Assembly (NCBI GenBank): GCA_964440465.1
Contig: CAYTSI010000005.1
Location: 151 to 64,150 of the forward strand
Source of the DNA: an uncultured Spirochaetales bacterium
GTDB lineage: Bacteria; Spirochaetota; Spirochaetia; SPDA01; CAZSGZ01
Length of the DNA: 64,000 bases
Direction of reading: 5' to 3'
Part shown: piece by piece, positions 2,452-58,476 of the stretch
How positions within the stretch are numbered: the first letter of the stretch is position 1
How the letters are laid out: every line of letters begins with the position of its first letter
Position numbers and translations under genes: made by a program
The notes under the pieces: generated by a model
What the model saw: the letters and a program-made list of their open reading frames with translations, nothing else
Told to the model about the DNA's origin: nothing
The model's database searches: none

Positions 2452-3790
2452 GACCGCTGTCCGTCTCGCGGAGGCGGTCCGGGAGGCGGGTATCGTCGGC
2501 GCCGGCGGCGCCGGCTTCCCCACCCATAAAAAGCTCGGCGGGACCTGCCGCACGGTAATTGCCAACGGAGCCGAGTGTGAACCCCTTCTGCAGAGCGACA
2601 AATACATTATGGAAACGGAGGCGGAGAAAATCGCCGCCGCCCTCGAGCTTGCGGTGAATGAACTGCGGGCGGAAGAGGGGATTATCGCGGTAAAGGAGAA
2701 GAACAGCCGGGCTGTGGAGCGGCTCGAAGCAGCGGCGGCATCAAGGGTTGCTCTGTCCCTCTATCACCTTGAAAACTTCTATCCAGCGGGGGACGAGCAT
2801 GTGTTAGTCCATGAGATAACCGGAAAGGTAGTGCCCGAGGGGGGTATCCCGATTGCCGTGGGTGTTGTTGTCCTGAATGTGGAAACGCTGTTGAACATCT
2901 GCAACGCGGTATATGAATCGGCCCCGGTCACCCTGCGCACCGTTACCTGTACGGGAGAGGTGAAGACGCCGAAGGTGCTGCGGGTTCCGGTCGGTACGGC
3001 CATGCGGGACGTAATTCATGAGTGCGGGGGTGCTCTGGTGGAAGAACCCGCTATAATCATCGGCGGACCGATGATGGGAAAGGTCACCACCGATGTAGAT
3101 ACGCCGGTTGATAAACTGACCGGCGGAATTATCGTTTTGCCGAGGGACCACGATTGCATTCAACGGAAAACACGGCCGTTAGAAGTGCAGGTGCGGCTCT
3201 CGCGGAGCGCCTGCTGTCAGTGCGTACTGTGCAGCGAGCTCTGTCCCCGGGAGATGCTCGGGCATAATCTGTATCCGCACTTAATTATGCGGCAGATCAA
3301 TTACGGTCTTGATTTGCCGGAAGAAGCGCTGGCAGCGGCGGCGCTCTGCTGTGAATGCGGAGTGTGCGAGGTGTTCGCGTGTCCTATGGGGCTTTCCCCC
3401 TCCTTTATCAACGGAATTATCAAACAGCGGTTTGCCGAGGGGGGGTACAAGCCGGAGTTCCCCGACAGGGAGCCTAAGCCGCATGAGATGCGGGAATACC
3501 GCAAGGTGCCGGCACAGCGGATAATAGGCCGTTTGCGGCTTAACCGCTACGACGAGCCGATGTATGACCGGGGAGGCGCCGTTACACCGGAACGGGTTGA
3601 ATTGCCGCTGCGGCAGCACATCGGGGCGCCGGCGGTGCCGGTGGTTTCCCCCGGGGCAGCGGTGAAACGGGGAGACTTAATCGGGGAAATTCCCGAAGGG
3701 AGCTTAGGGGCACGGGTGCACGCCTCGGTTACGGGGACCGTTACACTGGTGGAGGAAAGCCGGATACTTATTACGGCATCAGGGGCATAA
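2435..3790 (+). CDS. PduS/RnfC-like NAD(H)-binding iron-sulfur flavoprotein
   Basis: The 451-aa product has a GAGGAGFPTHKKL nucleotide/flavin-binding motif. It carries two ferredoxin-type clusters (CCQCVLCSELCP and CCECGVCEVFACP) and an RnfC-type barrel-like C-terminal segment. The track start is a TTG overlapping the upstream gene by 17 nt, so the exact start is uncertain. Confidence 0.8.
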   Translation: MSLESKTAVRLAEAVREAGIVGAGGAGFPTHKKLGGTCRTVIANGAECEPLLQSDKYIMETEAEKIAAALELAVNELRAEEGIIAVKEKNSRAVERLEAAAASRVALSLYHLENFYPAGDEHVLVHEITGKVVPEGGIPIAVGVVVLNVETLLNICNAVYESAPVTLRTVTCTGEVKTPKVLRVPVGTAMRDVIHECGGALVEEPAIIIGGPMMGKVTTDVDTPVDKLTGGIIVLPRDHDCIQRKTRPLEVQVRLSRSACCQCVLCSELCPREMLGHNLYPHLIMRQINYGLDLPEEALAAAALCCECGVCEVFACPMGLSPSFINGIIKQRFAEGGYKPEFPDREPKPHEMREYRKVPAQRIIGRLRLNRYDEPMYDRGGAVTPERVELPLRQHIGAPAVPVVSPGAAVKRGDLIGEIPEGSLGARVHASVTGTVTLVEESRILITASGA

Positions 3791-3793
3791 CAT

Positions 3794-4345
3794 ATGGAAT
3801 ACAGCGTAATCGGAGTACTTGAATTTTCGGCAACGGCGGCGGGCATTCTGGCCTTAGACAGCATGGTGAAGGCCGCGCCGGTGAAAATTATCGACGCGAA
3901 AACGATTTGTCCCGGCAAGTTCTATATTATCGTTACCGGAGACGTTGCCTCGGTTGATGCCGCGCTGACGGCGGGCAAAAAAGCGGGCGAGGGGTACTTG
4001 ATCGACGAGCTCTTTATTACCAACCTGCAGGAGCAGGTAATTCCGGCCATTTTAGGAACGGTGGAAACGACGAAGTGGGAATCTTTAGGCGTTATCGAAT
4101 CGTTTTCCATTGTGTCGAGTATCGTCGCGGGGGATTTGGCGGCGAAAGCGGCGGCGGTGGAGCTGCCTGAAATCAGGCTTGCTACGGGAATGGCGGGTAA
4201 ATCGTATGTAAAGATGATCGGGACGGTGCATGAGGTGGAGGTCTCCATGAAGGCGGCGAAAGAGTATGTGGGAAAGCAGGGCCTGTTATGTAAGGACGTT
4301 ATTATTCCCCACGCGCACCCGGAAATGAAGCCGTTTATTTTATAG
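3794..4345 (+). CDS. BMC shell protein, tandem-domain PduT-like (BMC-T) with candidate pore cysteine
   Basis: The 183-aa product has two BMC domains (VIGVLEFSATAAGILALDSMVKAA... and SLGVIESFSIVSSIVAGDLAAKAA...). Its length and the Cys in TICPGKF resemble PduT, whose trimer pore binds a [4Fe-4S] cluster. Confidence 0.75.
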   Translation: MEYSVIGVLEFSATAAGILALDSMVKAAPVKIIDAKTICPGKFYIIVTGDVASVDAALTAGKKAGEGYLIDELFITNLQEQVIPAILGTVETTKWESLGVIESFSIVSSIVAGDLAAKAAAVELPEIRLATGMAGKSYVKMIGTVHEVEVSMKAAKEYVGKQGLLCKDVIIPHAHPEMKPFIL

Positions 4346-4369
4346 GCACGGCGGAGGTAGGATACAGAT

Positions 4370-6941: not shown

Positions 6942-7820
6942 ATGGAGCAGAAAGATTTAGTAGAAAAATTGACGAAAGAGGTTATCGCGCGGCTTACGCA
7001 GGAAGGCAGCGGCGTTACAGGCGGCGCGCCTGCAGGCGGCAGCAGGACAACGGCCTCCGGCGGCGTCGGCGGCAATATGGGCGGCGGCCGGTCATCGGGC
7101 GCCGTACAGGAAGGCGGCTCGGCTCAGGCGGCCGGTTCCGGGGAGCTCCGTCCCTCCGACCTCAATAAATATATCGACCACACTCTGCTCAAACCGGAGG
7201 CGACGAAAGAGCAGATCGACAAGCTCTGCGATGAGGCGAAGGAATACTCTTTTTATTCGGTATGCGTCAACTCGAGCTGGGTGGAATACTGCGCGAAAAA
7301 ACTCCGCGGAAGCGGAGTCAAAATCAGTGCCGTAGTGGGGTTCCCCTTAGGCGCCATGGAAGGCCGTGCGAAGGGTTATGAAACAAGACACGTCGTCGAG
7401 GCGGGTGCCGATGAAATAGATATGGTGATGAACGTGGGCGCCCTGAAATCGGGAGACACGAAAAAGGTTGAAGAAGACATCCGCTGGGTCCGCCGGTCCA
7501 CCCGGCAGAAGACGGTTGTAAAAGTAATTATCGAAGCGGCCCTGCTGACCGATGACGAGAAGGTGCTCGCCTGTCAGATTTCGAAAAACGCCGGCGCCGA
7601 TTTCGTAAAAACGTCCACCGGGTTTGCAAAAGGCGGCGCCACCGCCGAAGATGTCGCCCTGATGCGGCGCACCGTCGGTCCGAAGACGGGCGTTAAAGCT
7701 GCCGGGGGGATCCGCTCCTTCGAAGATGCTGTGAAGATGATCAATGCCGGCGCGACTCGCTTAGGCACCAGTTCCAGCGTAGAGATTGTTACGGGGCAAA
7801 AGAGCACGTCGGCGTACTAA
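6942..7820 (+). CDS. deoC: Deoxyribose-phosphate aldolase (DERA) with ~68-aa N-terminal extension
   Basis: The core reads LNKYIDHTLLKPEAT...YSVCVN...VVGFPLG...DMVMNVG...VKVIIEAALL...ADFVKTSTGF...GVKAAGGIR, the class I aldolase DeoC pattern. The N-terminus is an amphipathic helix (DLVEKLTKEVIARL) followed by a long Gly/Ser/Ala linker. Confidence 0.9.
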   Translation: MEQKDLVEKLTKEVIARLTQEGSGVTGGAPAGGSRTTASGGVGGNMGGGRSSGAVQEGGSAQAAGSGELRPSDLNKYIDHTLLKPEATKEQIDKLCDEAKEYSFYSVCVNSSWVEYCAKKLRGSGVKISAVVGFPLGAMEGRAKGYETRHVVEAGADEIDMVMNVGALKSGDTKKVEEDIRWVRRSTRQKTVVKVIIEAALLTDDEKVLACQISKNAGADFVKTSTGFAKGGATAEDVALMRRTVGPKTGVKAAGGIRSFEDAVKMINAGATRLGTSSSVEIVTGQKSTSAY

Positions 7821-11046: not shown

Positions 11047-12174
11047 ATGTTCCGTATGAACCGGTTTACGATGTGCGCGGCAGCCGACTTTCACCTCGGC
11101 ATGAGGTTCTCTTCCTACCCTTCTGTGCAAAAGGAGCTGATACGGGCGAGGTTTTCCGCGCTCCGGCGGGTGGTGGACCGGGCAAATGCCGAACAATGCG
11201 CTCTTCTTGTGATAGCGGGAGATTTGTTTGATCGTATCAACATCCCGGTAAAAGAAGCGGAGGAAGTGATAGAAATTCTCGGCGGATTTCAGGGTGATTG
11301 CATTGCGGTTTTACCGGGTAACCACGATTATTTCAGCGGTGCAAAGAGCGGTGTCTGGAAAACCGTTACGGAGAATGGACCGGATAACCTCCTGCTGCTG
11401 TCGGAGAAGAAAAAATACTACCTCAATGATTTCCATTTGCCGGTTGTTTTATATGCCGGCCCATGCAGTTCTCAGCACGGACGTGAAAACGCGGTATCGT
11501 GGATCGGCCCGGCGGACCGAAAGGACAGAGAATTGTTTCATATAGGGGTAGCCCACGGCAGCATTGAGGGGATTTCCCCCGACGTAACCAAGCAGTATTT
11601 CCCGATGAACAGGAAGCAGCTGGAGTCCGCCGGTCTCGATTTGTGGATTATCGGGCACACCCATATACCCTTCCCGGAGCGGGAGGAAACGGTATCGCCT
11701 TTTATTATACCCGGCACACCCGAACCGGACGGTTTTGATTCCGGCGGGGACGGAGCTGCTTGGATTATTTCGGTAAATGATAACAAGGCGGTACACAAGA
11801 AGCGGTTTACTGCCGGCTCATACCGTTTTACGCGGCAGATAAAGGAAATACACTCCGCCGGGGACATTGAGGAGGCGGTCCGTGAAATGAGCGGAACGGC
11901 CGGTCCTTCCGTTCTCCTGCAGCTGAAACTGCGGGGCACTCTTGTGAAGGGCGATTTTCCCCTTTTAGGTCCGGCAATGGAAGAATTGGCACAGCGGTTT
12001 TTTTATACGGATATTGATACGGAAAGCGTGAAAACAAAGCTGACCCCCGGAGAAATCGGCAATGAATTCCGGGAAGGGACCTTTCCCTATATTCTTCTTT
12101 CCCGTCTCTCCGAGTACGGCGATACCGAGGCGCTCGAGCGGGCTTACAGGATCCTAGAGGAGATGAGGAAATGA
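11047..12174 (+). CDS. Metallophosphoesterase, SbcD/Mre11-like nuclease subunit (YhaO-like)
   Basis: The calcineurin-like phosphoesterase motifs are AADFHLG, IAGDLFD, LPGNHD and GHTH. The gene overlaps the downstream ATPase gene by 4 nt. Confidence 0.75.
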   Translation: MFRMNRFTMCAAADFHLGMRFSSYPSVQKELIRARFSALRRVVDRANAEQCALLVIAGDLFDRINIPVKEAEEVIEILGGFQGDCIAVLPGNHDYFSGAKSGVWKTVTENGPDNLLLLSEKKKYYLNDFHLPVVLYAGPCSSQHGRENAVSWIGPADRKDRELFHIGVAHGSIEGISPDVTKQYFPMNRKQLESAGLDLWIIGHTHIPFPEREETVSPFIIPGTPEPDGFDSGGDGAAWIISVNDNKAVHKKRFTAGSYRFTRQIKEIHSAGDIEEAVREMSGTAGPSVLLQLKLRGTLVKGDFPLLGPAMEELAQRFFYTDIDTESVKTKLTPGEIGNEFREGTFPYILLSRLSEYGDTEALERAYRILEEMRK

Positions 12175-14651
12175 TCATCCGGGACCTGCACATTCATACC
12201 TTCGGGGACTTTCAGGATGTCCGGCTGCAGTTTGCAGACGGGTGTAATATTGTCCTTGGTGAAAATGAAGCGGGTAAGTCAACGGTTTTCAATGTAATCG
12301 ATCATCTGCTGTTTACTCCCGTCAAGCTGACGAAGCGTGAAATGGAAAAAAGCTTGAATCGATGGTTTCCCGTTGGAGGCGGGGATACGTTGAGCGCGGA
12401 ATTATCTGCCGAACTCGGGGACAGAGCTGTTCGGTACTTCAAGTGCTGGGGCGGGAATCCGGAAGGAACAATTCGATTTTCACCGGGAGGGACCTATTCG
12501 GGCGATGATGCCCTCGCTGCGGAAACGGAAAAATTGTGGGGATACTCTCCGGAGACGGTGCGGCAGGTTTGCCTGCTGCGGCAGAGTACCCTCGCGGATA
12601 CGCTGCCTTCCTACCAGAATTCGAAGGAGGTATTGCAGTCTCTTACCGACATCCTGCAAAATTCTTTAATAGAAGGCGGCGGTATTTCCACCTCCGGTTT
12701 TATTGAAACTCTCCGGGACCGGTACAGCTTGTTTTTTTCAAGATGGGACAGAGACCGGAACTATCCGGAAAAAAACAGAGGGATTGAAAATCCATGGTCG
12801 GTAAACGTGGGTACGGTTTTGAAATGGTGGTATGAAATGAAGCGGGCCGAGTTAGAGGTCCGGCGGGTAGAGCAGCTGGAAGACTCAATATGTTTACTGC
12901 AGAGCAGCCAAAAAGAAAAAAAGAAGGAAACGGCAGCTCTCGAGTCGTTTCTTTCTGCCTTTGAGACAGTCTACAACACTGCCGGAGACAGAAAAAGCCT
13001 GGAATTGGAACTGCGGGAAATTATCGGTACGATGGAGCGGATAAAGAAAGACAGTCAATCCTGGGGACGGGGGAGGGATGGTCTTGAACAGGCGCTCCGG
13101 GAGCGGAAAGAAGGGAACGAAGAACTTGGAAAGCTCCGCGGGCGGATCGAAAGCAGGGATGAAGTAACGGCGAAACGGAAACGGTTCGAAAAATATCGTC
13201 GGCTGCTGGAGGTGAAAACAAAACTCGACGCCCTGGAGGCAAAGCTCAGAGAACAGCCGGCAATACCGGAAAAGGATTTGCAGGCACTCCGTGAATCAAG
13301 GTTGGCAATTCGGGAAAGTGAGGTGAAACTGCAGTCCGGAACACTCTTTGCACAGCTGACCGCGAAGAAAAATATCAGTTTTTCCTATACTCCCGGATTG
13401 GGCACTGAAAAGCGGCGTGACCTTATGGCAGGGAATTCGCTTGAAATAACGGCGGAAGGGAAAATTCGGCTGAGCCACGAAGACTGGGAGCTGGATGTTT
13501 ATTCGGGAAACGAAGATTACGAAACCGTCAAAAAGGAGCTGGAGGCAGGCAAAAAAGAGTTTAACGCTCTCTGTGAGAAGTACGGTGTTGTTTCCGTCGA
13601 GGAAGGAGAAGCACAGCGGAAGGTTTATACTGATCTGGAAGGGGAAACGGCACGGGCGCGGAAACAATTTTCCGAGGAACGCGGAGAGGACTCTTTTGAA
13701 GCCCTGAAGAAGGAAGTCGAAAGTTTTGGGGCCCTTCCTGAGGAAACCGACAGTACCGAGCTGGGAAGAGAATACGGTTCTCTCAATGAACGGCTTGCCG
13801 CGCTTGAAAAAACAATACAGGAACATCGGGAACGGTTGTCGTATTTGGAAGAGACATATGGGACGGAGGAAAAGCTTCTGGACATGCTCGCGGACCTCCG
13901 CGGCCGGCAGCGGGACTTGGAGAAACAAGTGGCTGCTCTTCCGGAAATTCCTGACCCCTTCGAAACGGCGGAAGAATTTCTTGAGGCATACAGGGAAAAA
14001 CAAAGAAAAAGGGAGACGCTCCGTCAGGAAATATTTGAGTTAGATAAGGCGGCCGCCCTTGCGGTAAAAGACCTCCCGGACATCTCCCTCGAGGAGCTCG
14101 AAGCGGACGCTGAAGCCGCGCGGCGGCGTTTTCAATCCGCGCTTTCGGAGGGGGAGACAATCGGCCGGATTCTCGAGACAGCGCTGCGGATCCAAAAAGA
14201 AATTCAGGAGAACCCCTATACCGCCTTTATGGAGGCGGCGGAAGCAAACCTTAAAAAAATGACCGGGCAGAGGCTGCAGTATAAAAGCAGATCAGGCGGG
14301 GGGGACGGTCAGGCAGCGGCCCCTTTTCACGGTGATGTTAGAAACAGCCGGGGAGAAATTCTGGCGTACGGACAGCTTTCAGGCGGAACGAAAGACGCGG
14401 TTTCTCTAGCCGTCCGGCTGGCAATGGCGGAGTATTATCTGAAAAATAAAGCAGGGTTTCTCCTCTTTGATGATCCCCTAGTGGAAATGGACCCGCGGCG
14501 CCAGAAGGCCGCCGCCGAACTGCTTTCCGAAACCGCCCGGCGCTACCAGTCGATAATCTTTACCTGTCATCCCCACATGCGCGATTTATTCCCGAATGCC
14601 AATGTAATTGAGCTGCATCGGGACGGGGAACGGAGGCGTGTTAAATTTTAA
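12171..14651 (+). CDS. SbcC/Rad50-like AAA ATPase with long central coiled coil (YhaN-like)
   Basis: Walker A (GENEAGKST) is at the N-terminus. The central ~500 aa are coiled-coil. The C-terminus carries an ABC signature (LSGGTKD) and Walker B (LLFDDPLVEMD). Confidence 0.8.
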   Translation: MIIRDLHIHTFGDFQDVRLQFADGCNIVLGENEAGKSTVFNVIDHLLFTPVKLTKREMEKSLNRWFPVGGGDTLSAELSAELGDRAVRYFKCWGGNPEGTIRFSPGGTYSGDDALAAETEKLWGYSPETVRQVCLLRQSTLADTLPSYQNSKEVLQSLTDILQNSLIEGGGISTSGFIETLRDRYSLFFSRWDRDRNYPEKNRGIENPWSVNVGTVLKWWYEMKRAELEVRRVEQLEDSICLLQSSQKEKKKETAALESFLSAFETVYNTAGDRKSLELELREIIGTMERIKKDSQSWGRGRDGLEQALRERKEGNEELGKLRGRIESRDEVTAKRKRFEKYRRLLEVKTKLDALEAKLREQPAIPEKDLQALRESRLAIRESEVKLQSGTLFAQLTAKKNISFSYTPGLGTEKRRDLMAGNSLEITAEGKIRLSHEDWELDVYSGNEDYETVKKELEAGKKEFNALCEKYGVVSVEEGEAQRKVYTDLEGETARARKQFSEERGEDSFEALKKEVESFGALPEETDSTELGREYGSLNERLAALEKTIQEHRERLSYLEETYGTEEKLLDMLADLRGRQRDLEKQVAALPEIPDPFETAEEFLEAYREKQRKRETLRQEIFELDKAAALAVKDLPDISLEELEADAEAARRRFQSALSEGETIGRILETALRIQKEIQENPYTAFMEAAEANLKKMTGQRLQYKSRSGGGDGQAAAPFHGDVRNSRGEILAYGQLSGGTKDAVSLAVRLAMAEYYLKNKAGFLLFDDPLVEMDPRRQKAAAELLSETARRYQSIIFTCHPHMRDLFPNANVIELHRDGERRRVKF

Positions 14652-14667: not shown

Positions 14668-15645
14668 TTATGAATCGAAGCTGTATTCCCCGCGCCATGA
14701 AACAATGTATTCCCAGACATTTCCCCGCGGCGGCCGTACCGATCCTCCTGTGCCGGGGTCGTACGTCCACGTTCCCGTAATCCCCTTTTCCGCGGCGGCG
14801 GCTTCGAAATGATACATTGCAATTCCCGTATCGATCCGCTGTAGGTCAATGTGCTTCCTGAAAAGCCCGTAAGCTCTGTCCCTTTGCAGAAAAAAATGCA
14901 CCAGGTTCTCCGCTTTCCCGCTGCCCCGGAAGGTGATTATCAGCCGCCATGGCTGCTTGTTTGATGCCGAGGGAGCAAGTCGCACGCATTCGAGAATGAT
15001 CTTTGTTTTTTCGGAAACTTCACTGGGTTGCAGAGGTTTGAGGGGGACAGAGCTGCAGGTAACGAAAAACAGTTTTTCCCACGGTTTCCGGCGTTTCGAT
15101 CCCGCGGCAAATCTGATGAAGCGTGCAGCCGGCCGCCTACGTTCCGCCGGATATCCCACAGGTGTTATTGCAGGGATAATTTCGTTGTCTGGAAGATTGA
15201 GGTATTCTGAAAGTTTCCCGCGCTGAAAAGTTCCCCCGAGCCAGCAGGTCCCGAGGCCGAGATTCGTCAACTGCAGGATAATATGTTCAAAGGTGTAGCC
15301 GAGGTCCGTCATTTTCTGAGGGACAGAGCTGCCTTTTGAGGAATTTTCTATGTTTCGCTTCCGATTTGCAGTGTCCGCCGCGACTGATTTTTCTGTAACT
15401 GTAACAATGCCCGCGGCAAAAAGGCGTGCCCCTCGTATAAAACCGTAAGTACCAAGTGAGCTCCGCCACTCCTCCGGCATACCGGATAGGTCAATCAGCG
15501 TAAACCGGATGCGCGATCCGAACGGCGGGACAGCACCGGGATGTACGATGAGTTTTTCAATTTTATTTACCAGTTCCGGTTCGCAATGCCGCCCAGAATA
15601 AGAGCGGATCGACCTTCTCCGAAGTATTGTATCGTGTATCGTCAT
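14668..15645 (-). CDS. Nitroreductase-family protein
   Basis: The N-terminal TILRRRSIRSYSG motif and the later APSASNKQPW motif are typical of nitroreductase folds. The start was trimmed to the ATG at 15645 (MTIHDTILRRRS). Confidence 0.7.
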   Translation of the reverse strand: MTIHDTILRRRSIRSYSGRHCEPELVNKIEKLIVHPGAVPPFGSRIRFTLIDLSGMPEEWRSSLGTYGFIRGARLFAAGIVTVTEKSVAADTANRKRNIENSSKGSSVPQKMTDLGYTFEHIILQLTNLGLGTCWLGGTFQRGKLSEYLNLPDNEIIPAITPVGYPAERRRPAARFIRFAAGSKRRKPWEKLFFVTCSSVPLKPLQPSEVSEKTKIILECVRLAPSASNKQPWRLIITFRGSGKAENLVHFFLQRDRAYGLFRKHIDLQRIDTGIAMYHFEAAAAEKGITGTWTYDPGTGGSVRPPRGNVWEYIVSWRGEYSFDS

Positions 15646-15836
15646 CGTCTCTTGTCGAGGGTAATTATATTCACAGGTAGGAGAATACTCTAATTGGGAG
15701 TCTACTTCTATGGGCGACCTCAAGTTTTCCCTTACTGGTCTGGAGATGTAAAGCGTTTAGGAAAATCAGCTACTTACTCTTAATGCTCCGTCCCTCATCA
15801 ACAGCACCGGTTATCGCTCACCGGTATTCGGCATTA

Positions 15837-16343
15837 TCAGCGTAACTTCATCCAAACCCGCCGCAGGAAATCATTAGGCGGCCGCTCTAATATGTCCAGC
15901 TGTCCCTTATAGATCAAACTCATGCCGCTGTATTTATAGTCTGTCGCGTATTGGACCATTTTGGCGCGAACTGGGTTATTGGCTATATAAACAAATGTGG
16001 CAAGATATTGCAGGAAACTGTGAATTATTTTGCTTTTAAACCGCTCGTTCCATACATGGCCGGTTAGCCCAAATGTTTTATTATACTGCATCGCGAAAAC
16101 GCTTAAAACCCATTGCATAATGGCCGATAAGCTCTCATTATTCAGCGGTTTTATGATGAAATGGTAATGGTTTCCCATTATACAGAAGTTTTTGATAGTG
16201 AAGCGGTATTTTTTTTTTGCCCTTCTGATGACTTCCATAAACATTTCTTGTATTTCCGGTGTTTTGAATATTACTTCTTTGCGGTTCACTCTGGAAACTA
16301 CGTGATAACTTGCCCCATACTGTAATTGCCTTGGTTTTCTCAT
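15837..16343 (-). CDS. IS200/IS605-type Y1 (HUH) transposase-like protein, RAYT-like
   Basis: The 168-aa product has an HUH motif (GNHYHFII) and a C-terminal tyrosine region (YIANNPVRAKMV...YKYSG). The gene stands alone, with no tnpB nearby, and local GC content is lower than in the neighbouring genes. Confidence 0.8.
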   Translation of the reverse strand: MRKPRQLQYGASYHVVSRVNRKEVIFKTPEIQEMFMEVIRRAKKKYRFTIKNFCIMGNHYHFIIKPLNNESLSAIMQWVLSVFAMQYNKTFGLTGHVWNERFKSKIIHSFLQYLATFVYIANNPVRAKMVQYATDYKYSGMSLIYKGQLDILERPPNDFLRRVWMKLR

Positions 16344-16448
16344 TCTTTACCCCCTCGAATAGTCGGTATTTTTTTTTGCCTATACTTAATAAGAAGGGGT
16401 AAATAGGATTGCTGATTTTAAAATTCGGTCATTTTTTTTATTTTTTTT

Positions 16449-16458
16449 GCTCTGTCCC
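16449..16458 (-). repeat. Intergenic copy of the over-represented 10-mer GGGACAGAGC
   Basis: GCTCTGTCCC is read on the + strand, 106 bp upstream of the RAYT start codon. Confidence 0.95.
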
Positions 16459-16464
16459 CATCTT

Positions 16465-17661
16465 TTAGCTTTTTAACCGCTTGAGAAGTTCCCGGGCGAC
16501 AGCTGTCTCAACTTTATCCTCTGTCCCTAGCCCGCATACAGTACGGACCATGTGTTCATGTCCGTTTGCGGCCAGTTCTTCAGCGAACTGCTTGTCCCCT
16601 GGGAAAAGAATGCCGTTTTCGTCGGATCCGCGGAATGCAAACCCGGCGGCGGCTGCCTCGGCAATTGCGCTATAGGGAAGCCCGTGGGTTTCGGCTAAAA
16701 GCATTGCTCCGACCAGCCTATCGTCTTTGGCAAGTTTCCGTTGAAGGTCCCGGCCGACCCGGAAAATGGTATCACCCAATGCTTTATTTCGGAACCTGTT
16801 TAGAAGGTCGCCAATGTGTTCTCGGAGCGCGTCCAGAGAGAGATCGGCCGGGTACGCGGCGTGAAGGGCTTCTCCTGACTGTTCCATTGCTTTTTGTACT
16901 TTATCCTTAATTTCCGGAAGCTCAAGGGGTTCCCAGATGTAGGTAAACCCGGGTTCCTTACGATATCCGATATACGCCGCCGCCGCGTGACCCATATTAT
17001 GAATGAACAGTTTCCTGTCTACGTAGGCGGTTATATTTTCCACTGCTTTTATCTCGGGGAAATCCGGCACTTCTCGGACAAATCCGTGTTTATCAAGGAT
17101 AAGCGTATTGTATTCTTCCGAGAATACCCACAGTGGATCTTCGTTTTTGTCTTCCTCCCGCATAATCGGTACCATTTTCCCAATACTCGTTTCAACCAGG
17201 CCCACTGTTTTCTGAATGGGGAAGCCGGGAGGTAGATATTTCTGCAGTTCCCTTCTAAAAAAAGCAGCTCCGTCCCTCATATTTTCAGCAATAATGATGT
17301 CGATTTTTGCCGCTTCCGTCCGCATTTTTATCCCTTCGGCAATAACGGGGATTATATGCGGTAAGACCCCCTTCCCAACAGACGTGGCAATGTACGCCGC
17401 TTTGGAAATTTCTTCCGCTACTGCAGCTCTGTCCCTGCCGTCGACGGCTCGGACACCGGTAACGAAGACCTCTTCATCTTCCTGATTGTTCCGTTTAATA
17501 ATGACACGATAGGAGTTCCTGCTGTTCAACTCCCGTATCAGCGTTTCATCAATATCGACAAAGACAACCTCATAACCGTTGCCTGCAAACACCTTCCCGA
17601 TAAATGATCTGCCGATATTTCCGGCACCGAACTGCACTAGTTTTTTCTGTTTTTCCTGCAT
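16465..17661 (-). CDS. mtlD: Mannitol-1-phosphate 5-dehydrogenase family protein
   Basis: The product is collinear with E. coli MtlD as I recall it. Shared segments include FGAGNIGRSFIGK, IIIAENM, VDRKLFIHNMGHAAAAYIG and RFRN...RVGRDLQRKL..DDRL. Confidence 0.75.
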   Translation of the reverse strand: MQEKQKKLVQFGAGNIGRSFIGKVFAGNGYEVVFVDIDETLIRELNSRNSYRVIIKRNNQEDEEVFVTGVRAVDGRDRAAVAEEISKAAYIATSVGKGVLPHIIPVIAEGIKMRTEAAKIDIIIAENMRDGAAFFRRELQKYLPPGFPIQKTVGLVETSIGKMVPIMREEDKNEDPLWVFSEEYNTLILDKHGFVREVPDFPEIKAVENITAYVDRKLFIHNMGHAAAAYIGYRKEPGFTYIWEPLELPEIKDKVQKAMEQSGEALHAAYPADLSLDALREHIGDLLNRFRNKALGDTIFRVGRDLQRKLAKDDRLVGAMLLAETHGLPYSAIAEAAAAGFAFRGSDENGILFPGDKQFAEELAANGHEHMVRTVCGLGTEDKVETAVARELLKRLKS

Positions 17662-17738: not shown

Positions 17739-17748
17739 GCTCTGTCCC
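17739..17748 (-). repeat. Intergenic copy of the over-represented 10-mer GGGACAGAGC
   Basis: GCTCTGTCCC is read on the + strand, in the mtlD-like/pfkB divergent intergenic region. Confidence 0.95.
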
Positions 17749-17833: not shown

Positions 17834-18769
17834 GTGAAACCAGTAATAACTGCATATGGCGAGGCCCTGTGGGACCTTCTGCCGGAAGGCCCGGTCTTAG
17901 GCGGGGCATTGCTGAATTTTACCTACCGGGCAAAGAGCTTAGGCGCTGACGCGGAATGTATCAGCAGGCTCGGTATGGACGATTTGGGGGACAGAGCTGC
18001 CGGAAAAATGAACGACTTGGGGTTTGATATGAATTATATTCAGAGGGACAGTGCTCACTCTACCGGGACGGTCCCAGTCAGTTTTGATGAACAGAAAAAT
18101 CCCAGCTATGTCATTACCCCGGAGGTTGCGTTTGATTTTATTGAAGACACGGAAAATCTTGAGGCCAGAATACAACAATCCGACTGCCTCTGCTTCGGGA
18201 GCCTTATTCAGCGCGCTCCGGTTTCGCGGGAAACCCTCTACAAACTGATCGAGCAATTCGGGGGCAGGTACCTGCTTTTCGATATCAATTTACGAAAAGA
18301 CTGTTATTCCTCCAAAACGGTGCGCACGTCCCTGGAAAAATGTCATATTGCGAAGCTCAATGAGGACGAACTGCATGAGCTTAAAGAATTAATTGGAATT
18401 TCCGGGAATTCAGTCCGGAAACTGACGCAATCCTGTGTTGAAACCTACGGTTTGACCTATTGTCTCGTAACTTTAGGAGACAAGGGGCTTTTTGCCGCGG
18501 CTGATTCGGGGACAGAGGTGTATGTTCCGGGTATTGTCGTCGACCTTGTCGACCCGATTGGTGCCGGGGACGCCTGTACGGCAGGGTTTATTTTTTCTCT
18601 CCTGCAGGACAGTCCTCTCGATTACGCGTGCAAATATGCCAATGCAATCGGTGCGGCGGTCGCGGAAACTTCCGGGGCCACCGGTTTTGTATCGAAAGAG
18701 CGGATCGAAGCGGTCCTCCGCGGTGGGGACTATTCGGAGCCTCATCCAGAATTTCGGAGGAAGTACTGA
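17834..18769 (+). CDS. PfkB-family carbohydrate kinase
   Basis: The N-terminus AYGEALWDLLP is followed by the C-terminal DPIGAGDACTAGF anion-hole/ATP motif typical of ribokinase/PfkB kinases. The start is either GTG 17834 (RBS GTGAGG) or the track ATG at 17795. Confidence 0.8.
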   Translation: MKPVITAYGEALWDLLPEGPVLGGALLNFTYRAKSLGADAECISRLGMDDLGDRAAGKMNDLGFDMNYIQRDSAHSTGTVPVSFDEQKNPSYVITPEVAFDFIEDTENLEARIQQSDCLCFGSLIQRAPVSRETLYKLIEQFGGRYLLFDINLRKDCYSSKTVRTSLEKCHIAKLNEDELHELKELIGISGNSVRKLTQSCVETYGLTYCLVTLGDKGLFAAADSGTEVYVPGIVVDLVDPIGAGDACTAGFIFSLLQDSPLDYACKYANAIGAAVAETSGATGFVSKERIEAVLRGGDYSEPHPEFRRKY

Positions 18770-19120: not shown

Positions 19121-19130
19121 GGGACAGAGC
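19121..19130 (+). repeat. Intergenic copy of the over-represented 10-mer GGGACAGAGC
   Basis: This is an exact match occupying the sequence block at 19121-19130. Confidence 0.95.
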
Positions 19131-42909: not shown

Positions 42910-43671
42910 CTATACTCCTCGAACTTCGCAGTTGATGCCCGTTTCTCGGACGATTTCAGCCGCGCGGCGCAGTTCAGTCCCGAAATAGGGACAGAGCTCG
43001 CTGAACGCGGGGTCGAGGGTCGTGCCGGGCCTGAATTGCGTCAGAATGTACCTGCCCGCGCTTTGCGGGTCCCGGGCCGCCGAAGTATAAGCCGATTTCA
43101 GGAGTTCCGCTATTGCTGCCGCCTCCTCCGTCCCCGCTATACCCGGGGCCATGGTGGTGCGGAATTCGTGGCGCACCCCGGAAGAGATGATGATTTCAAT
43201 GCTTTGCCGCAGGGCGTTTTCCACAGTGTCGACAGCCGCGGATGCCGGAGGGACAGAGCTGCTGAGAAGGCCGTATTTCTCCGGGACCGTTTTGATGTCC
43301 ATGGCAATATAGTCGGTCCGTGCAAGCAGCGGACGAAGCAGGCGGGGAAAGCAGCCGTTCGTGTCGAGTTTTACTTTTAAACCGAGGTTTTTACAGAAAT
43401 CGATAAACCCTATCAGGTCCGTATGCAGAAGCGGTTCGCCGCCGGTAACGCAGACCCCCCCGAGGACGGAAGCGCGTTTTGCTACAAACCGCCGCACCTC
43501 TTCAATCGGCAGCAGGTCATCCGGAAACGGCGGTATAACGAGCTCGGGATTGTGGCAGTAGGGGCAGCGGAGGTTGCAGCCCGGTGTAAACACCGTGGCC
43601 GCAACCTCTCCCGGAAAGTCGATTAAGGTCGTTTTAACCAGCCCTGCCCTGGTAAGCGTCATGGCCGGCAC
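42910..43671 (-). CDS. nrdG: Anaerobic ribonucleoside-triphosphate reductase activating protein (radical SAM)
   Basis: The CNLRCPYCHN radical-SAM cluster motif is present, along with GGVCVTGGEPL, and the gene lies in the nrdD operon. Confidence 0.85.
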   Translation of the reverse strand: MPAMTLTRAGLVKTTLIDFPGEVAATVFTPGCNLRCPYCHNPELVIPPFPDDLLPIEEVRRFVAKRASVLGGVCVTGGEPLLHTDLIGFIDFCKNLGLKVKLDTNGCFPRLLRPLLARTDYIAMDIKTVPEKYGLLSSSVPPASAAVDTVENALRQSIEIIISSGVRHEFRTTMAPGIAGTEEAAAIAELLKSAYTSAARDPQSAGRYILTQFRPGTTLDPAFSELCPYFGTELRRAAEIVRETGINCEVRGV

Positions 43672-53851: not shown

Positions 53852-55759
53852 ATGAACGACAAAGAAAACCAATTTCAAAATCAATTTGACAAACTGCCCG
53901 GCTTTTCCGGCGGGGACAACGGCAACTTTTTCCGCAAATGGGGACCGCTGCTTCTCCTGCTCCTTCTGTTTACCATTCCCTGGATCGTGACCCTCTTTTC
54001 CGGAGGGGTAACCCGTACACAGGTAAGCTATTCCTTTTTTATTCAACAGCTGAACGAGGGAAATATCGAGTCCGTGCTGGTCCGCGGCGAAGAAATACAA
54101 GGAACGCTGAAGGAAAATGCCCTGACGCTGTCGACGGAAGGGGACGGCGGGGGGACGGAGGTGCGCCGGTTTACCACATTTTATCCGGCAAAGATCAGCA
54201 GTTCGCTCATTTCCGACCTCCAGGGCGGCAATGTTGTGGTATACACCCAGCCTGAAAGGGAGGGGGATTTTTTTACCGTTCTTCTGAATATTCTTCCGTT
54301 TCTTTTTATTTTCTGGATCATTTTTCGGCTTTCCAAACGGATGCGCGCCCAGGGCGGAGGGCTGTTCAATGTTGGCCGGAACAAAGCGAAAAAATATGAA
54401 AAGAAACGGCAGGAGGAAACCACCTTTGACGATGTGGCAGGGATAGAATCGGCGAAGGCCGAACTCAAGGAAATTGTCGATTTTTTAAAGAAGCCGGACA
54501 AGTACCGCAATTTCGGCGCGAAAACGCCGAAGGGAGTACTGTTAGTGGGTCCTCCGGGGACCGGAAAAACGCTCCTTGCCCGCGCGGTCGCGGGGGAGGC
54601 GGATGTGCCCTTTTTCAGCATCAGCGGTTCCGATTTTATGGAAATGTTTGTCGGTGTCGGCGCTTCACGGGTGAGAAATCTGTTTCGGGACGCAAAAAAG
54701 CAGCAGCCGAGTATTATTTTTATCGACGAACTCGACTCCATCGGCAGGAGCCGGGGCGCGGGTTTAGGGGGCGGACACGACGAGCGGGAACAGACCCTCA
54801 ATCAGCTCCTTTCCGAACTGGACGGATTCGAGCAGGACGAAAGCACAATCGTTCTAGCCGCTACCAATCGGCCGGACATTCTCGACCCCGCTCTGCAGCG
54901 CCCGGGAAGGTTTGACCGGCAGATTACCACAAATCTGCCGCCGAAGAAGGACAGAACGTCTATTCTGCGAATCCACAGTAAAAACAAACCATTGGCGGAA
55001 TCCGTGGACCTCGAGCGGCTTGCCTCGAGCACACCCGGGTTCAGCGGCGCGGATTTGGCAAACCTGCTGAACGAGGCGGCCTTGATCGCGGTAAAAAACG
55101 GGAAAAAGGAAATTGAACAGGAGGACCTTGATACGGCCAGGGACAAGGTGATACTTGGTCTTGAACGGAAAAGTGTCGTCATGAGCGACCGGGAAAAGGA
55201 GATTGTAGCGTATCACGAATCGGGGCATGCCTTAGTGGCGGCGCTCCTTCCCAATGCGGAGCCGGTCCACAAGGTCACCATTATCCCACGGGACCGTTCC
55301 ATGGGGGCGACGCAGCAGCTTCCCGAAGAAGACAGGTATCTGTATGAACTCGCCTATCTGCAGGACCGGATTTCGGTAATGATGGGAGGCCGGGCGGCTG
55401 AAAAACTGAAAACCGGTACCCTGACAAGCGGCGCGGAAAACGACTTGAAGGAGGCACAGAAACTCGCGCGGAAAATGGTCCTTGACTGGGGAATGGCGGA
55501 ACAATTCGAGAATATCGCCATGGGCAGCCAGCGGCAGAATGTTTTTTTAGGTGAACAGATCGCGGCTGAAAAAGAGTACAGCGAAGAGACAAACCGGCAC
55601 ATCGATGAAGCGGTGCAAAAACTGCTGACCGATGCTTTTAACCGGGCAACGGAAAACTTACAGGAGCAGGAGAAAGTCCTGGACGGTATTGCCGAAATAC
55701 TGCTGCGGGAAGAGGAGATATCCGGGCGGCAGATTTATGAAATGCTCCACACACAGTGA
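53852..55759 (+). CDS. ftsH: ATP-dependent zinc metalloprotease FtsH
   Basis: The AAA module has GPPGTGKT and DELD. The SRH region is present, and the HESGH zinc motif appears in [12 protein letters not shown]. There is an N-terminal TM segment. Confidence 0.95.
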
Positions 55760-56217: not shown

Positions 56218-56229
56218 AAAACAGGCTTA

Positions 56230-58476
56230 TTGAAAAGAAACGGTAACTATATACCGGTAATTGTCGCGGGAATAATTATTTTCCTGTTTGTTACCGGAGA
56301 AATTACACTGCGGCATCTCCCCTTTCCCGAACTTGAGGCGTTTCAGAACAGGGCGTACAGTACAATAGTAACCGACAGAAACGGCACAATTCTCAGAATT
56401 CTTCCTCTCGAAGGAGGATTGAGGCGGGAATACGTTCCCCTCGAAGAACTGCGCCCGGAGATTGTCCGGATTTTTATCGAAAGCGAAGACAAGCGGTTCT
56501 CTTTTCACCGCGGTGTGGACGGTTTTGCCGTGCTGCGCGGTTTTTTTCAAAACAGACGAGCGGGACGGACGGTTTCGGGGGCGTCCACCATCTCCATGCA
56601 GCTGGCGGGTCTTGTCCGCCCGCGAAAGCAGACCGTCGGGGGCAAGGTCCTTGAAGCCTGGGACGCCCTTCGCCTGGAGGCAAAACTCTCGAAACGGGAA
56701 ATCCTCGAGCTGTGGCTAAACTCTCTCCCCTTCGGCAGGCAGGCGGAGGGTGTCGGGAGCGGCAGCAGGGCCTACTTCAATATATCCGCCGCGGACCTCT
56801 CAATTCCGGAGGCGGCCCTTCTTGCCGTTGTTCCGAGGCATCCGAAAAAGTACAGCCCCGTCGACAATCCAGAGGGCGCGTATGAAGGCGCGCTCCGCAA
56901 TGCCGGGAGGCTTCGTACGGACATTTCCGCACAGGAGCTGCGGAAGGCCGCCCGGGCCGCGGAGCCGGGAAATTTTATCTACCACGCGCCCCATTTTCTT
57001 CGTCAAATAGGGACAGAGCTCGGCGGCAAGCAGGGCGGCAGGGTAACAACCACATTGGATCTGGAACTTCAGCAGCATTTTCACCGTCTTTTGTCCACCT
57101 ATCAGCAGCGGTACGCCCAAAGCCGCATTACCAGCGCCGCCGGAATGCTCATCGACAATCATACGGGCGAAGTCCTTGCCTACGTCGGTTCACTCGACTT
57201 TTTCTCCGGCAGAGCGGGGGAGCAGCTGGACGGGGTAACCGTCCCGCGGCAGCCCGGGTCCTGTCTTAAACCCTTTCTTTACGCGGCGGCGCTGGAGGAC
57301 GGGTGGTATCCGAACACACTGCTTCCCGACGTCCCGCTCAATTTCGGCGGGGGCGAGGTATATGTGCCTTCGAATTTCACAAATTCTTTTTCCGGTCCCG
57401 TCAGGCTTCGGGTTGCCCTCGGGTCGTCTCTGAACGTACCGGCGGTCTATCTGTTGGATGAGATCGGGTTGGAACGGTTCGGGGAGCTGCTGCGGGCGGC
57501 GGGTTTTCACGTCGGAGCGGGCGCGCTTGAGAAGGCGGGCCTCGGCGCCGCGTTGGGCAATCTGGATGTCTCCCTCCTGGAACTGACCCGGGGCTTCGCC
57601 CTTTTCCCCCGGCGTGGTGTGCCCCTGGAGCTTTCATGGACACTCCCCGAAGTTTTCGAAGGGCCCTCCCCCGCGGGACGGGCCGTTTCCGAATACACCG
57701 CCGATATTATCTGCGACATCCTCTCGGACCCGGCGGCGAGGGCCCGGGGGTTCGGGTACAATTCCGCTTTTACCCTTCCCTTTCCCGCCATGTTTAAAAC
57801 CGGGACAACCGATCAGTTTCAGCACATCTGGGCCCTTGCCGCGACGCCGGATTATACCGTGGGCATATGGATGGGAAACAACACCGGGGAAACGGTAATC
57901 GGCCGGACCGGTTCCTCCGTCCCCGCGCGGATAGCGGCTGAAGTGCTTACCTTCGCGCGGAAGGGGAGGGCGGAATTCCCGGTCCCGGCGGGGGCGGTGC
58001 CGGTGGAGATCTGCACAGTATCCGGGCAGCGGGGGACGGAGCTCTGTCCCTCCGTTGTTACCGAATACCTGCCGGCGGCCGGCGGGGAAGGGGCTGTACC
58101 CGGTCCCTGTACATTTCATATACTGCGAAACGGTACGGTAACAACCGAGTATCCGGAAAAATATCATGCATGGCTGCGGGAGCTGGGCCGGTCGGGGGGA
58201 TTTTCCTTCTCCGGCGGAGAAGGCCTTGAAATTATTCACCCCCGCGGCGGAGCGGTATTTTACTATGACCCGACAGTTTCCGCCGGAGTCCAGGCGCTGC
58301 GGGTCGAGGCAGCTGCCGGCAGGCCCGGGGCCTGCACACTCTATGTAAACGGCGAAAGGGCGGGTACTGTTTTCCATCCCCCCTATGTATGGTTTTTGCC
58401 GCTTCAGCGGGGAGCGTGGGAATTGACCGTATCGAATACCGGTTCCGAGGCGACGGTGCGCGTCGAAGTCCGCTAA
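56230..58476 (+). CDS. pbpC: Penicillin-binding protein 1C-like (glycosyltransferase plus transpeptidase)
   Basis: The GT51 motifs are EDKRFSFHRGVD and GASTISMQL. The transpeptidase motifs are SCLKPF, SNF and KTGTT. A C-terminal extra domain is typical of PbpC. The start codon in the track is TTG. Confidence 0.85.
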   Translation: MKRNGNYIPVIVAGIIIFLFVTGEITLRHLPFPELEAFQNRAYSTIVTDRNGTILRILPLEGGLRREYVPLEELRPEIVRIFIESEDKRFSFHRGVDGFAVLRGFFQNRRAGRTVSGASTISMQLAGLVRPRKQTVGGKVLEAWDALRLEAKLSKREILELWLNSLPFGRQAEGVGSGSRAYFNISAADLSIPEAALLAVVPRHPKKYSPVDNPEGAYEGALRNAGRLRTDISAQELRKAARAAEPGNFIYHAPHFLRQIGTELGGKQGGRVTTTLDLELQQHFHRLLSTYQQRYAQSRITSAAGMLIDNHTGEVLAYVGSLDFFSGRAGEQLDGVTVPRQPGSCLKPFLYAAALEDGWYPNTLLPDVPLNFGGGEVYVPSNFTNSFSGPVRLRVALGSSLNVPAVYLLDEIGLERFGELLRAAGFHVGAGALEKAGLGAALGNLDVSLLELTRGFALFPRRGVPLELSWTLPEVFEGPSPAGRAVSEYTADIICDILSDPAARARGFGYNSAFTLPFPAMFKTGTTDQFQHIWALAATPDYTVGIWMGNNTGETVIGRTGSSVPARIAAEVLTFARKGRAEFPVPAGAVPVEICTVSGQRGTELCPSVVTEYLPAAGGEGAVPGPCTFHILRNGTVTTEYPEKYHAWLRELGRSGGFSFSGGEGLEIIHPRGGAVFYYDPTVSAGVQALRVEAAAGRPGACTLYVNGERAGTVFHPPYVWFLPLQRGAWELTVSNTGSEATVRVEVR

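Follow-up and report, generated by a model that had tools for sequence, protein, structure and literature searches.

A hyper-abundant short DNA word, found mostly inside genes, is associated with a family of RAYT-type HUH/Y1 genes in very different genomes

In a 64-kb stretch of DNA from an uncultured Spirochaetales bacterium (contig CAYTSI010000005.1; hereafter, the window), a short word, GGGAC[AG]GAG, occurs in 46 copies, or one per 1.4 kb, where about one copy would be expected. The word is also found on both sides of the window's only gene for a REP-associated tyrosine transposase (RAYT; REP, repetitive extragenic palindrome), an HUH/Y1-type protein of 168 amino acids encoded at 15837..16343 on the minus strand. 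We found that the word is tied to the RAYT gene family across very different genomes and that its variants change in step with the RAYT phylogeny and with whichever variant is abundant in the locus. The window is one instance of a phenomenon that recurs in unrelated lineages carrying the same RAYT clade. In our judgment, it is fairly likely that a domesticated RAYT-type HUH/Y1 enzyme has this sequence, without the REP hairpin, as its cognate word and that the word is kept by selection or drive.

Definition and abundance of the word

The 10-mer GGGACAGAGC is the most frequent 10-mer of the window, with 22 exact copies when both strands are counted, whereas shuffling with dinucleotides preserved yields 0.13 on average and no more than 2 in any shuffle, and Markov models of order 0 to 4 give an expectation of at most 0.36. 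A preliminary description of this DNA had listed these 22 copies, and all of its coordinates and strands were correct. Among the single-substitution variants of the 10-mer, those with G for A at position 6 (seven copies) and with G for C at position 10 (four copies) recur, while every other variant is found once or not at all; GGGACGGAGG accounts for 10 further copies. Our working definition of the word is the 9-mer GGGAC[AG]GAG, and its fuller form is RGGGAC[AG]GAG[CG]. The recurrence of two one-mismatch relatives had also been described. For GGGACAGAGG, this holds, with the plus-strand copies starting one base later than had been given (18509 and 35109), and for GGGACGGAGC, two positions had to be corrected (11757 to 11747 and 58028 to 58033) and a seventh copy, at 15785-15794, had been missed.

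Outside the core, we observed only weak preferences, for R at −1, C or G at +1, and T or A at +2. The base 5′ of GGGACAGAGC is G in 13 and A in 9 of the 22 copies, as described previously, and the 3′ base is T in 14, with TG or TC in 13 of these rather than in the 14 first reported. When the window copies were compared, no flank homology was found past about one base on the 5′ side and two to three bases on the 3′ side; therefore, the copies are not pieces of a longer dispersed repeat, a possibility that the preliminary description had raised. The word is asymmetric and not a palindrome, it contains neither GTAG nor a marked hairpin, and nothing past about 12 nt is conserved around the window copies. 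When folded, the 69-nt segments around the copies have slightly greater stability than random windows (−18.4 against −14.9 kcal/mol), but these controls were not matched for GC and the difference is slight, so we do not take it as a sign of REP-like structure. There is no strong polarity along the window, in agreement with the preliminary description, as 26 copies lie on the plus strand and 20 on the minus strand while the GC skew is mostly positive throughout. Two local arrangements are an intergenic direct pair on the plus strand (19121 and 19164, 43 nt apart) and two overlapping inverted copies at 58033-58050 within pbpC, which form the 18-nt palindrome GGGACGGAGCTCTGTCCC.

Association of the word with RAYT genes

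The RAYT protein of the window belongs to Pfam PF01797 (Y1_Tnp, IS200-like), scores 80.2 bits against NCBIfam NF047646 (REP-associated tyrosine transposase), for which the cut-off is 80, and matches PDB 4ER8 (E. coli TnpA-REP) over residues 10-140 with E=1.3e-3. Its HUH histidines, H59 and H61 (NHYH), and its tyrosine Y119 (YIANNP, of the form YIxNNP) are invariant or nearly so in 32 homologues, and Y---NP is the class 2 signature of the Y1 tyrosine motif (PMC6006769, Table 1). No domain beyond Y1 was detected in the 168 residues with precomputed Pfam assignments and NCBIfam. The gene is flanked by the over-represented word, with one copy 106 nt upstream and another 42 nt downstream. Its upstream region (16344..16464, minus strand) contains the word, an A-rich stretch, and the conserved blocks AATCAGCA and TTTACCC; a scan for sigma-70 promoters and terminators around the gene gave nothing convincing and no strong sigma-70 consensus. 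The neighbouring nitroreductase and mannitol dehydrogenase genes are also found in two of the compared loci (L092 and L084), the RAYT protein of which is 80% identical to that of the window.

We compared 83 further loci with RAYT homologues (48-80% identity) that range in GC from 25 to 68% and have differing neighbour genes. At least 150 bp of upstream sequence was available for 75 loci; 55 of these have an exact GGGAC[AG]GAG no more than 300 bp upstream of the RAYT gene, and many others present one-base variants there (GGGACAGTG, GGGACAGAC, GGGACGGCG, or GGGACAGGG), often in multiple copies. In about 45 homologous loci, the layout is the same, namely the word, an A-rich stretch, a TGAAGCA-like block, and the ATG. 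No other neighbour gene is conserved across the RAYT loci. The upstream word is present even in loci with almost no other copy (L103/L106, L132, L149, and L186, the last from a 3.79-Mb contig), and thus it is not a spill-over of general abundance. The preliminary description had presented the word as something other than a mobile element, but it had overlooked a RAYT gene bracketed by two copies, and the upstream word in 55 of 75 loci speaks against that part of its reading.

The variants of the word give a second line of association. On a neighbour-joining tree of the RAYT proteins, the upstream variants form clades, and the variant adjacent to the RAYT gene is usually the one that is abundant locally. 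For instance, the two match for GGGACAGACC in L141 and L163, for GGGACGGAGG in L121 and L122, for GGGACAGAGC in L147 and L168, and for GGGACGGAGC in L092. The downstream copy is found in only 10 of 80 RAYT loci, mostly in direct orientation, and we dropped the idea of an element with two ends in which this copy would be the second transposon end.

Some upstream regions contain small arrays. In L148, five copies of GGGACGGCG follow one another with a 9-nt period at about 9836-9880, and in L185, five copies of GGGACAGAG are spaced by 20-47 nt at about 398-535. Loci L127, L130, and L148 (GC 64%) also contain five to six copies each of GGGACAGTCC or GGGACTGTCC, which correspond to the near-palindrome GGGACWGTCCC, a self-complementary relative of the word.

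Distribution among and within loci

Beyond 1 kb from the gene, the RAYT loci have 0.34 copies per kb, compared with 0.018 in control loci (18-fold; Mann-Whitney p=4e-12). The controls were 80 FtsH-centred GTDB loci, the best matches listed, with at most 63% identity to the FtsH of the window. The best of them come from uncultured Spirochaetales, which places the source organism among spirochaete-like bacteria. RAYT-carrying lineages have 10 to 100 times as many copies as these controls, and among RAYT loci, the density spans from none to 1.6 per kb in L182 (32 copies in 18 kb, of which 27 are genic) and 1.9 per kb in L175 (28 copies of GGGACAGACC in 14.6 kb). In L182, L147, L153, and L095, the copies lie mostly inside open reading frames (ORFs) and in both orientations, except for L095 (14 sense, 2 antisense), while in the very AT-rich L121 and L122, they are mostly intergenic. 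The window itself matches contigs from microbial-mat metagenomes (ENA PRJEB25599, JGI 3300012009), and some contigs of the RAYT clade carry names suggesting termite-gut metagenomes.

Within the window, the copies are clumped (index of dispersion 2.7 in 4-kb bins, p=4e-4), and the densest stretch is that around the RAYT gene, with 2.0 copies per kb within 4 kb. No copy was found at 43.3-54.1 kb, at 58.05-64 kb, or in the 9.45 kb that lie beyond the right end of the window and bring the source-genome DNA covered to about 74 kb, nor is there one in nrdD or in the 5.8-kb alpha-2-macroglobulin gene. A similar trend appears when non-redundant RAYT loci are pooled, with the density falling from about 1.0 per kb at 1-2 kb from the gene to 0.1-0.5 per kb at 7-10 kb. 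When distances on the same flank were paired, the 0.5-4.5 kb interval contained 76 copies and the 5.5-9.5 kb interval 43 (binomial p=0.003); the near interval had more copies in 14 flanks and the far one in 4. Such a decay with distance fits a RAYT-dependent cause, whereas neither an uptake signal nor a general host word would predict it.

Coding context

We called 55 ORFs, which cover 93% of the window. Forty of the 46 copies (87%) are genic, 30 in sense and 10 in antisense, and 6 are intergenic; for the 22 copies of GGGACAGAGC, the corresponding numbers are 10, 8, and 4, which agrees with the 18 genic and four intergenic copies described previously. The use of all six reading frames, another claim of the preliminary description, is true for the 46-copy set only, and the use is uneven; the 18 genic copies of GGGACAGAGC fill five of the six classes of orientation and frame, with antisense frame 2 empty.

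When synonymous codons were shuffled with the proteins kept fixed, the expectation in genes was 0.59 for the 10-mer and 3.8 for the 9-mer, compared with the 18 and 40 observed, and shuffling the order of codons gave 0.13 and 1.25. This codon-aware null model bears out the earlier proposal that what is maintained is the word at the level of DNA; neither a peptide motif nor an effect of composition accounts for it. The peptides encoded by the copies are mainly G-T-E (19) and [GR]-D-[RG]-[AV] (10), with a single W-D-R-D. The tripeptide G-T-E occurs 23 times in the window where 7.3 would be expected (about threefold), and 19 of the 23 are written GGG-AC[AG]-GAG, a codon triple expected in about 6% of G-T-E. 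We conclude that the word shaped the proteins and not the reverse. We also considered whether the 30:10 bias towards the sense orientation reflects a signal at the level of transcription or RNA and rejected this, as random codon strings with the codon usage of the window already give a sense-to-antisense ratio of 4.2:1. After allowing for codon usage, enrichment is about equal in both orientations (around 28-fold in sense and 39-fold in antisense).

Origin and conservation of the copies

Closer relatives were found through SbcC, and orthologues were aligned with those of L083, L092/L093, L085, and L095. In L083, whose SbcC is 89% identical, three of the four window sites of the SbcCD region are shared, and the fourth is one base off. 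L084 and L092 (SbcC 50% identical) have 8 and 11 copies, all GGGACGGAG and mostly GGGGACGGAGCT, and this variant reads as a dialect of the word, while L085 (45% identical) has one copy. Opposite the motif sites, the orthologues have ordinary codons and no gaps; for instance, R-N-G-A (GTAATGGCG) stands across from R-D-G-A (GGGACGGAG), and Q-D-E, S-V-D, or G-A-A across from G-T-E. Because orthologous sites align in this way, the alignments indicate that copies are made by substitution at variable positions of the proteins, often changing amino acids, and not by insertion. For the same reason, we rejected the insertion of a mini-element of 9 or 12 nt as the source of the extra G-T-E. Between the window and L092, the switch between A and G at position 6 follows the dialect of each lineage at two of the three common sites, and one such switch entails a change between Arg and Gly.

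Once made, copies change much less than the 9-mers around them. In alignments of relatives whose DNA differs by 7-12%, identity is kept at 32 of 37 motif sites, whereas random 9-mers of the same alignments predict 10. The differences that exist between close relatives are mostly single bases. At column 4864 of the alignment of L148 with L130 (about 10% diverged), GGGACAGAG stands opposite GGGGCCGCC, with four substitutions that all lie inside the 9-mer and identical flanks of 12 and 14 bases. In L184 (6594-6640), a 27-nt in-frame segment is present that is absent from L182 (at 14952); it consists of TCGAAGTGGTCGAAGT and a second GGGGACAGAGG and is bounded by two direct copies of the word (6594 and 6621). 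This polymorphism lies within a 9-nt periodic repeat and may be due to replication slippage. About 60 single-nucleotide polymorphisms in contigs that are 99.9% identical to the window include none in the motif, which is uninformative.

Interpretation and alternatives

If the word is the cognate site of the RAYT protein, this protein would read it, probably as single-stranded DNA like its characterised relatives, and would cleave and rejoin it. Copies that match its specificity would gain an advantage, which might come from a selected role of RAYT for the host at these sites or from a RAYT-dependent fixation bias with greater strength in the vicinity of the gene. In contrast to classical REP/REPIN elements, the unit is a bare word of 9-12 nt that has no hairpin and does not spread by insertion. 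Candidate mechanisms include a benefit to the host from the regular placement of RAYT sites, selection against near-cognate sites that are cut yet not resealed, and short-patch replacement. A bolder proposal, which we regard as possible but doubtful, is that a RAYT-type enzyme propagates its own 9-10-nt word through the chromosome, ORFs included, without inserting DNA, through short-patch replacement or RAYT-dependent fixation bias acting most strongly near its own gene. What replicates would then be a bare word rather than an element. Hints in this direction are the decay with distance and the four substitutions confined to the 9-mer in L148 and L130.

Several points weigh against a cognate relationship between the word and the enzyme. 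The characterised TnpA-REP enzymes require a hairpin and GTAG (PMC8266576), and no hairpin accompanies the window copies. Loci L103, L132, L149, and L186 have the upstream copy without wider enrichment, and therefore, a RAYT gene alone is not sufficient. The decay with distance is modest and was measured on a heterogeneous set of metagenomic loci selected by means of the RAYT gene, and the control loci were drawn from a different collection than the RAYT loci. At the right-hand side of the window, around 15 kb are free of copies, and the data represent only the 74 kb of the genome mentioned above. Finally, we know of no Y1 chemistry that would account for the spread of a word by substitution.

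The analogy drawn in the preliminary description was with DNA-uptake sequences (DUS) and uptake signal sequences (USS), for which the preference of a competence receptor would bias transformation and the copy beside the RAYT gene would be incidental. A word of about 10 nt at 0.7 copies per kb, on both strands and in several frames inside genes, equally enriched in both orientations, with dialects in related species (GGGACGGAGC in L084 and L092) and with copies that arise by substitution and are then conserved, is what such a signal would look like, since density, symmetry, dialects, substitution origin, and conservation of this kind are hallmarks of USS and DUS. However, an uptake signal would predict neither the same core upstream of RAYT homologues in genomes of 25-68% GC, including genomes with no other copies, nor word variants that track the RAYT tree, nor a density that decays from the RAYT gene with strong clumping and some 15 kb without copies. 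In addition, none of the window's genes, about 55 in number, codes for competence or pilus functions, a weak point given that the analysis covered only about 74 kb of the genome. We consider the analogy probably wrong and an uptake signal quite improbable; the RAYT evidence favours the other option offered in the preliminary description, that of a word recognised by a protein. That protein could belong to another host system, for instance one for nucleoid organisation or segregation, one for Chi-like recombination signals, or one that marks 'self' in defence or repair, and the RAYT gene would then only share or borrow the word. The strong excess and the conservation irrespective of coding are consistent with this idea, GGGAC is the known recognition core of a type IIS enzyme, BsmFI, and the RAYT-bearing genomes without enrichment would allow another factor to set the abundance. 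Nevertheless, the loci have no further conserved gene next to the word, there is no polarity along the window (26:20) and orientation follows coding compatibility, unlike Chi or the FtsK-orienting polar sequences (KOPS), and 0.7-1.9 copies per kb is far above known sets of nucleoid-protein sites. As co-variation with RAYT clades and decay with distance point to RAYT itself, we find another host system unlikely.

Two further explanations deserve less weight. The 10-mer could be the most conserved part of a classical REP, a REPIN, or a miniature inverted-repeat transposable element that spreads by insertion, and the word-flanked RAYT gene, occasional REPIN-like intergenic inverted doublets (13563/13591 in L182 and 6500/6543 in L092), and the 27-nt polymorphism between two direct copies in L184 and L182 would be in keeping with this. 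But conservation does not extend past about 12 nt, there is no palindrome or hairpin, 40 of the 46 copies are genic, and orthologue comparisons are almost all gapless, with no DNA added; the polymorphism itself, in a repeat of 9-nt period, could be replication slippage. We therefore judge spread by insertion to be very improbable. Nor is the word at all likely to be a by-product of protein sequence, composition, or codon or mutational bias. It is true that 19 copies encode G-T-E, 10 encode [GR]-D-[RG]-[AV], and one encodes W-D-R-D, and that codon usage favours the sense orientation. Yet synonymous shuffling with fixed proteins gives 3.8 copies where 40 are observed, which contradicts this explanation, a codon triple expected in about 6% of G-T-E writes 19 of the 23, antisense and intergenic copies are enriched as strongly, and related genomes of similar GC lack the word. 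We regard a by-product as practically negligible.

Comparison with known systems

Both the DUS of Neisseria and the USS of Pasteurellaceae resemble the word in length, in a density of about one per kb, in their presence on both strands, and in their preferred coding frames, dialects, substitution origin, and conservation. They differ in being spread fairly evenly over the core genome, independently of any gene, whereas the word is clumped and linked to RAYT with a decay over distance. Chi and KOPS or AIMS (architecture-imparting sequences) are also over-represented G-rich oligomers that are read by a DNA-processing machine, but they are strongly skewed with the direction of replication, 5-8 nt long, and less dense, while the strand split in the window is 26:20 and orientation is set by codon compatibility. 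The highly iterated palindrome HIP1 (GCGATCGC) of cyanobacteria is another hyper-abundant short word inside coding sequence, which is reported to arise there by substitution and to be conserved (bioRxiv 10.64898/2026.06.24.733823). HIP1 is a palindrome tied to DNA methyltransferases, in contrast to an asymmetric word tied to a Y1 transposase gene.

The word and its RAYT gene also resemble the REP/REPIN-RAYT systems (REPtrons) of Proteobacteria, such as E. coli TnpA-REP with its REPs and bacterial interspersed mosaic elements (BIMEs) and the REPINs of Pseudomonas fluorescens (PMC2817692, PMC3116915, PMC5581495, PMC8266576). In both cases, an HUH/Y1 gene is flanked by an over-represented short sequence, the protein and the sequence variant co-evolve, and copy number varies widely among lineages. 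The known RAYT genes are single-copy, vertically inherited, and do not behave like insertion sequences; the same may be true of the present gene, which has one copy in 64 kb and shares its neighbours with L092 and L084. However, REPs and REPINs have a GT[AG]G head and a hairpin of 20-40 bp, are extragenic, and spread by insertion, usually as inverted doublets, whereas the present word is a bare 9-12 nt, is 87% genic and in both orientations (intragenic also in L182, L147, and L153), and has copies that arise by substitution, with inverted doublets being rare. The downstream flanking copy is also rare here (10 of 80 loci) and mostly direct instead of inverted.

Di Nocera et al. reported that the inverted repeats flanking TIRYT genes share GGGGWSAS, that is, GGGG[AT][CG]A[CG] (PMC3733652), and Quentin et al. 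placed most TIRYT genes in subclass 2.1 of TnpA-Y1 (Group 1 of Bertels), with no REP-like structures nearby (PMC6006769). This motif fits GGGGACAG, the 5′ part of the word, and in both cases, domesticated Y1 genes occur without canonical REPs. Most copies in the window open with GGGGACAG or with GGGGACGG, which deviates from the motif at one position; a G precedes the core in 27 of 46 copies, and the copies upstream of RAYT genes agree with this. Nevertheless, TIRYT proteins have a median of about 238 amino acids, a C-terminal helix-turn-helix, and YIELNP or Y[IV]HLNP, unlike the 168-residue window protein with its NHYH and YIANNP, which is nearer to the YIxNNP signature of subclass 2.4. Their terminal inverted repeats are moderately abundant, whereas no inverted repeats flank the window RAYT gene, and the intragenic spread of a word is not reported for them (PMC3733652, PMC6006769). 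The statement in the preliminary description that no described motif has this sequence is thus nearly right, with the shorter TIRYT motif as the reservation. When the 10-mer and the 9-mers of both strands were looked up in open-access papers and bioRxiv, the only hits were eukaryotic primers and similar sequences, and in the same sources, we found no paper on a RAYT with a hyper-abundant word that is intragenic or made by substitution.

Positions of the copies

In what follows, GGGACAGAGC denotes the 10-mer, and the remaining copies are given as 9-mers with the next base in brackets. To the left of the RAYT gene, the RnfC-like gene contains two antisense copies of GGGACAGAGC on the minus strand (2750..2759 and 3238..3247), and the DeoC-family gene one antisense GGGACGGAG(C) (7146..7154, minus). 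All copies in sbcD and sbcC are in sense on the plus strand, namely GGGACGGAG(C) in sbcD (11747..11755; G-D-G-A, conserved in L083) and, in sbcC, GGGACAGAGC (12418..12427; G-D-R-A, conserved in L083), GGGACAGAG(A) (12745..12753; GGGACAGAGC at this site in L083), and GGGACGGAG(G) (13860..13868; G-T-E, with GGAACGGAG in L083, one base different). The nitroreductase gene has GGGACAGAGC in sense on the minus strand (14873..14882) and twice in antisense on the plus strand (15044..15053 and 15320..15329, both S-S-V-P).

The two copies that bracket the RAYT gene are intergenic and in its orientation on the minus strand, with GGGACGGAG(C) 42 nt past the stop codon (15786..15794) and GGGACAGAGC 106 nt upstream of the ATG (16449..16458). 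Next to them, the mannitol-dehydrogenase-like gene contains three sense copies on the minus strand: GGGACAGAG(G) (16519..16527; G-T-E, GGGACGGAG at the L092 site), GGGACGGAG(C) (17268..17276; R-D-G-A, aligned without gaps to GTAATGGCG, R-N-G-A, in L092), and GGGACAGAGC (17426..17435; R-D-R-A). An intergenic GGGACAGAGC lies between divergent genes (17739..17748, minus), and the pfkB kinase gene has GGGACAGAGC (17988..17997; G-D-R-A, with GGGACGGAG, G-D-G-A, in L092) and GGGACAGAG(G) (18509..18517; G-T-E), both in sense on the plus strand. The intergenic direct pair of GGGACAGAGC follows on the plus strand (19121..19130 and 19164..19173).

Further to the right, the RACo-like gene contains GGGACGGAG(T) (24208..24216, identical in L092) and GGGACGGAG(C) (25225..25233), and the URO-D/thioredoxin gene GGGACAGAG(G) (27215..27223), all in sense on the minus strand, where an intergenic GGGACGGAG(G) is also located (28331..28339). 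On the plus strand, sense copies are found in the DBI_PRT (CobT-like) gene (GGGACGGAG(A) at 29696..29704 and, at its end, GGGACGGAG(G) at 30335..30343, read as G-T-E-E-stop), the VWA gene (GGGACAGAGC, 33050..33059, G-T-E-L), the histidine kinase gene (GGGACGGAG(G) at 34575..34583, GGGACAGAGC at 34854..34863, GGGACAGAG(G) at 35109..35117, and GGGACAGAGC at 35892..35901), the response regulator gene (GGGACGGAG(C) at 36026..36034 and GGGACGGAG(G) at 36382..36390), and the penicillin-amidase-family gene (GGGACGGAG(G), 39296..39304). The ARMT1-like (DUF89) gene has a sense GGGACAGAGC on the minus strand (37055..37064).

The LPP20 lipoprotein gene contains GGGACAGAGC (41956..41965; R-G-Q-S) and GGGACGGAG(G) (42412..42420) in sense on the minus strand and GGGACAGAGC in antisense on the plus strand (42137..42146). 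In nrdG, GGGACAGAGC occurs twice in antisense on the plus strand (42988..42997 and 43250..43259) and GGGACGGAG(G) once in sense on the minus strand (43126..43134). The last copies are a sense GGGACGGAG(G) in ftsH (54152..54160, plus) and four in pbpC, that is, GGGACAGAGC in sense (57010..57019, plus), GGGACGGAG(G) in antisense (57915..57923, minus), and the overlapping inverted pair, with GGGACGGAG(C) in sense (58033..58041, plus) and GGGACAGAGC in antisense as its other arm (58041..58050, minus).

Other features of the window and compared loci

The left end of the window is occupied by a divergent DeoR regulator (1-790) and a bacterial microcompartment (BMC) locus (861-7820) with CsoS1D-like and BMC shell proteins, four EutN/CcmL genes, an RnfC-like flavoprotein, an aldehyde dehydrogenase, RpiB, and DeoC. 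In another strain or relative (L192, 1-2800; JGI 3300077746), a different left flank lies beside this DeoR/microcompartment locus, with a HigB-like toxin, an AAA_14 ATPase, a GC of 42%, and no copy of the word. A cobalamin riboswitch (Rfam RF00174, 50.7 bits; 52892-53065, minus strand) is located just after the alpha-2-macroglobulin gene, and the Rfam scan found nothing else. Between nrdD and nrdG, a 178-aa ORF (43692-44228, minus strand) with weak similarity to NRDD may represent a C-terminal part of the anaerobic ribonucleotide reductase that is either split off or additional.

Other short repeats were seen in the compared loci. A metagenome-assembled genome of Ca. Promineifilaceae (L038, 1-13737; JBHIWP010000138.1) has the palindromic decamer AACGGCCGTT at about 17 dispersed sites in 13.7 kb, which is a HIP1-like hyper-abundant palindrome in a Chloroflexota genome. 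Tandem 7-nt arrays with the units GGTTCAA and CAGTTGT are present in L029 (331-430 and 4678-4730) and L058 (8332-8436), which are Balneolaceae and Bacteroidota contigs.

Implications

The function of RAYTs and the reasons for their retention are a long-standing open question, and the systems studied have been those with hairpin REPs in intergenic DNA. The RAYT clade described here is linked to a word of 9-10 nt without a hairpin, which through substitution saturates the coding DNA of several unrelated lineages, very AT-rich and GC-rich ones among them. Bertels et al. searched for abundant 16-mers in extragenic flanks (PMC5581495), and because the 10-mer is mostly intragenic, a search of this kind would miss it; hairpin searches (PMC6006769) would likewise miss it. 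Such overlooked bare words may explain the apparent absence of REPs in several RAYT groups.

The finding also indicates that hyper-abundant words resembling uptake sequences can have another cause, and caution is needed before competence is deduced from DUS-like words in metagenome-assembled genomes. Moreover, a word at the level of DNA can reshape protein sequence. With one small protein and one 10-mer, this is a simple system to test.

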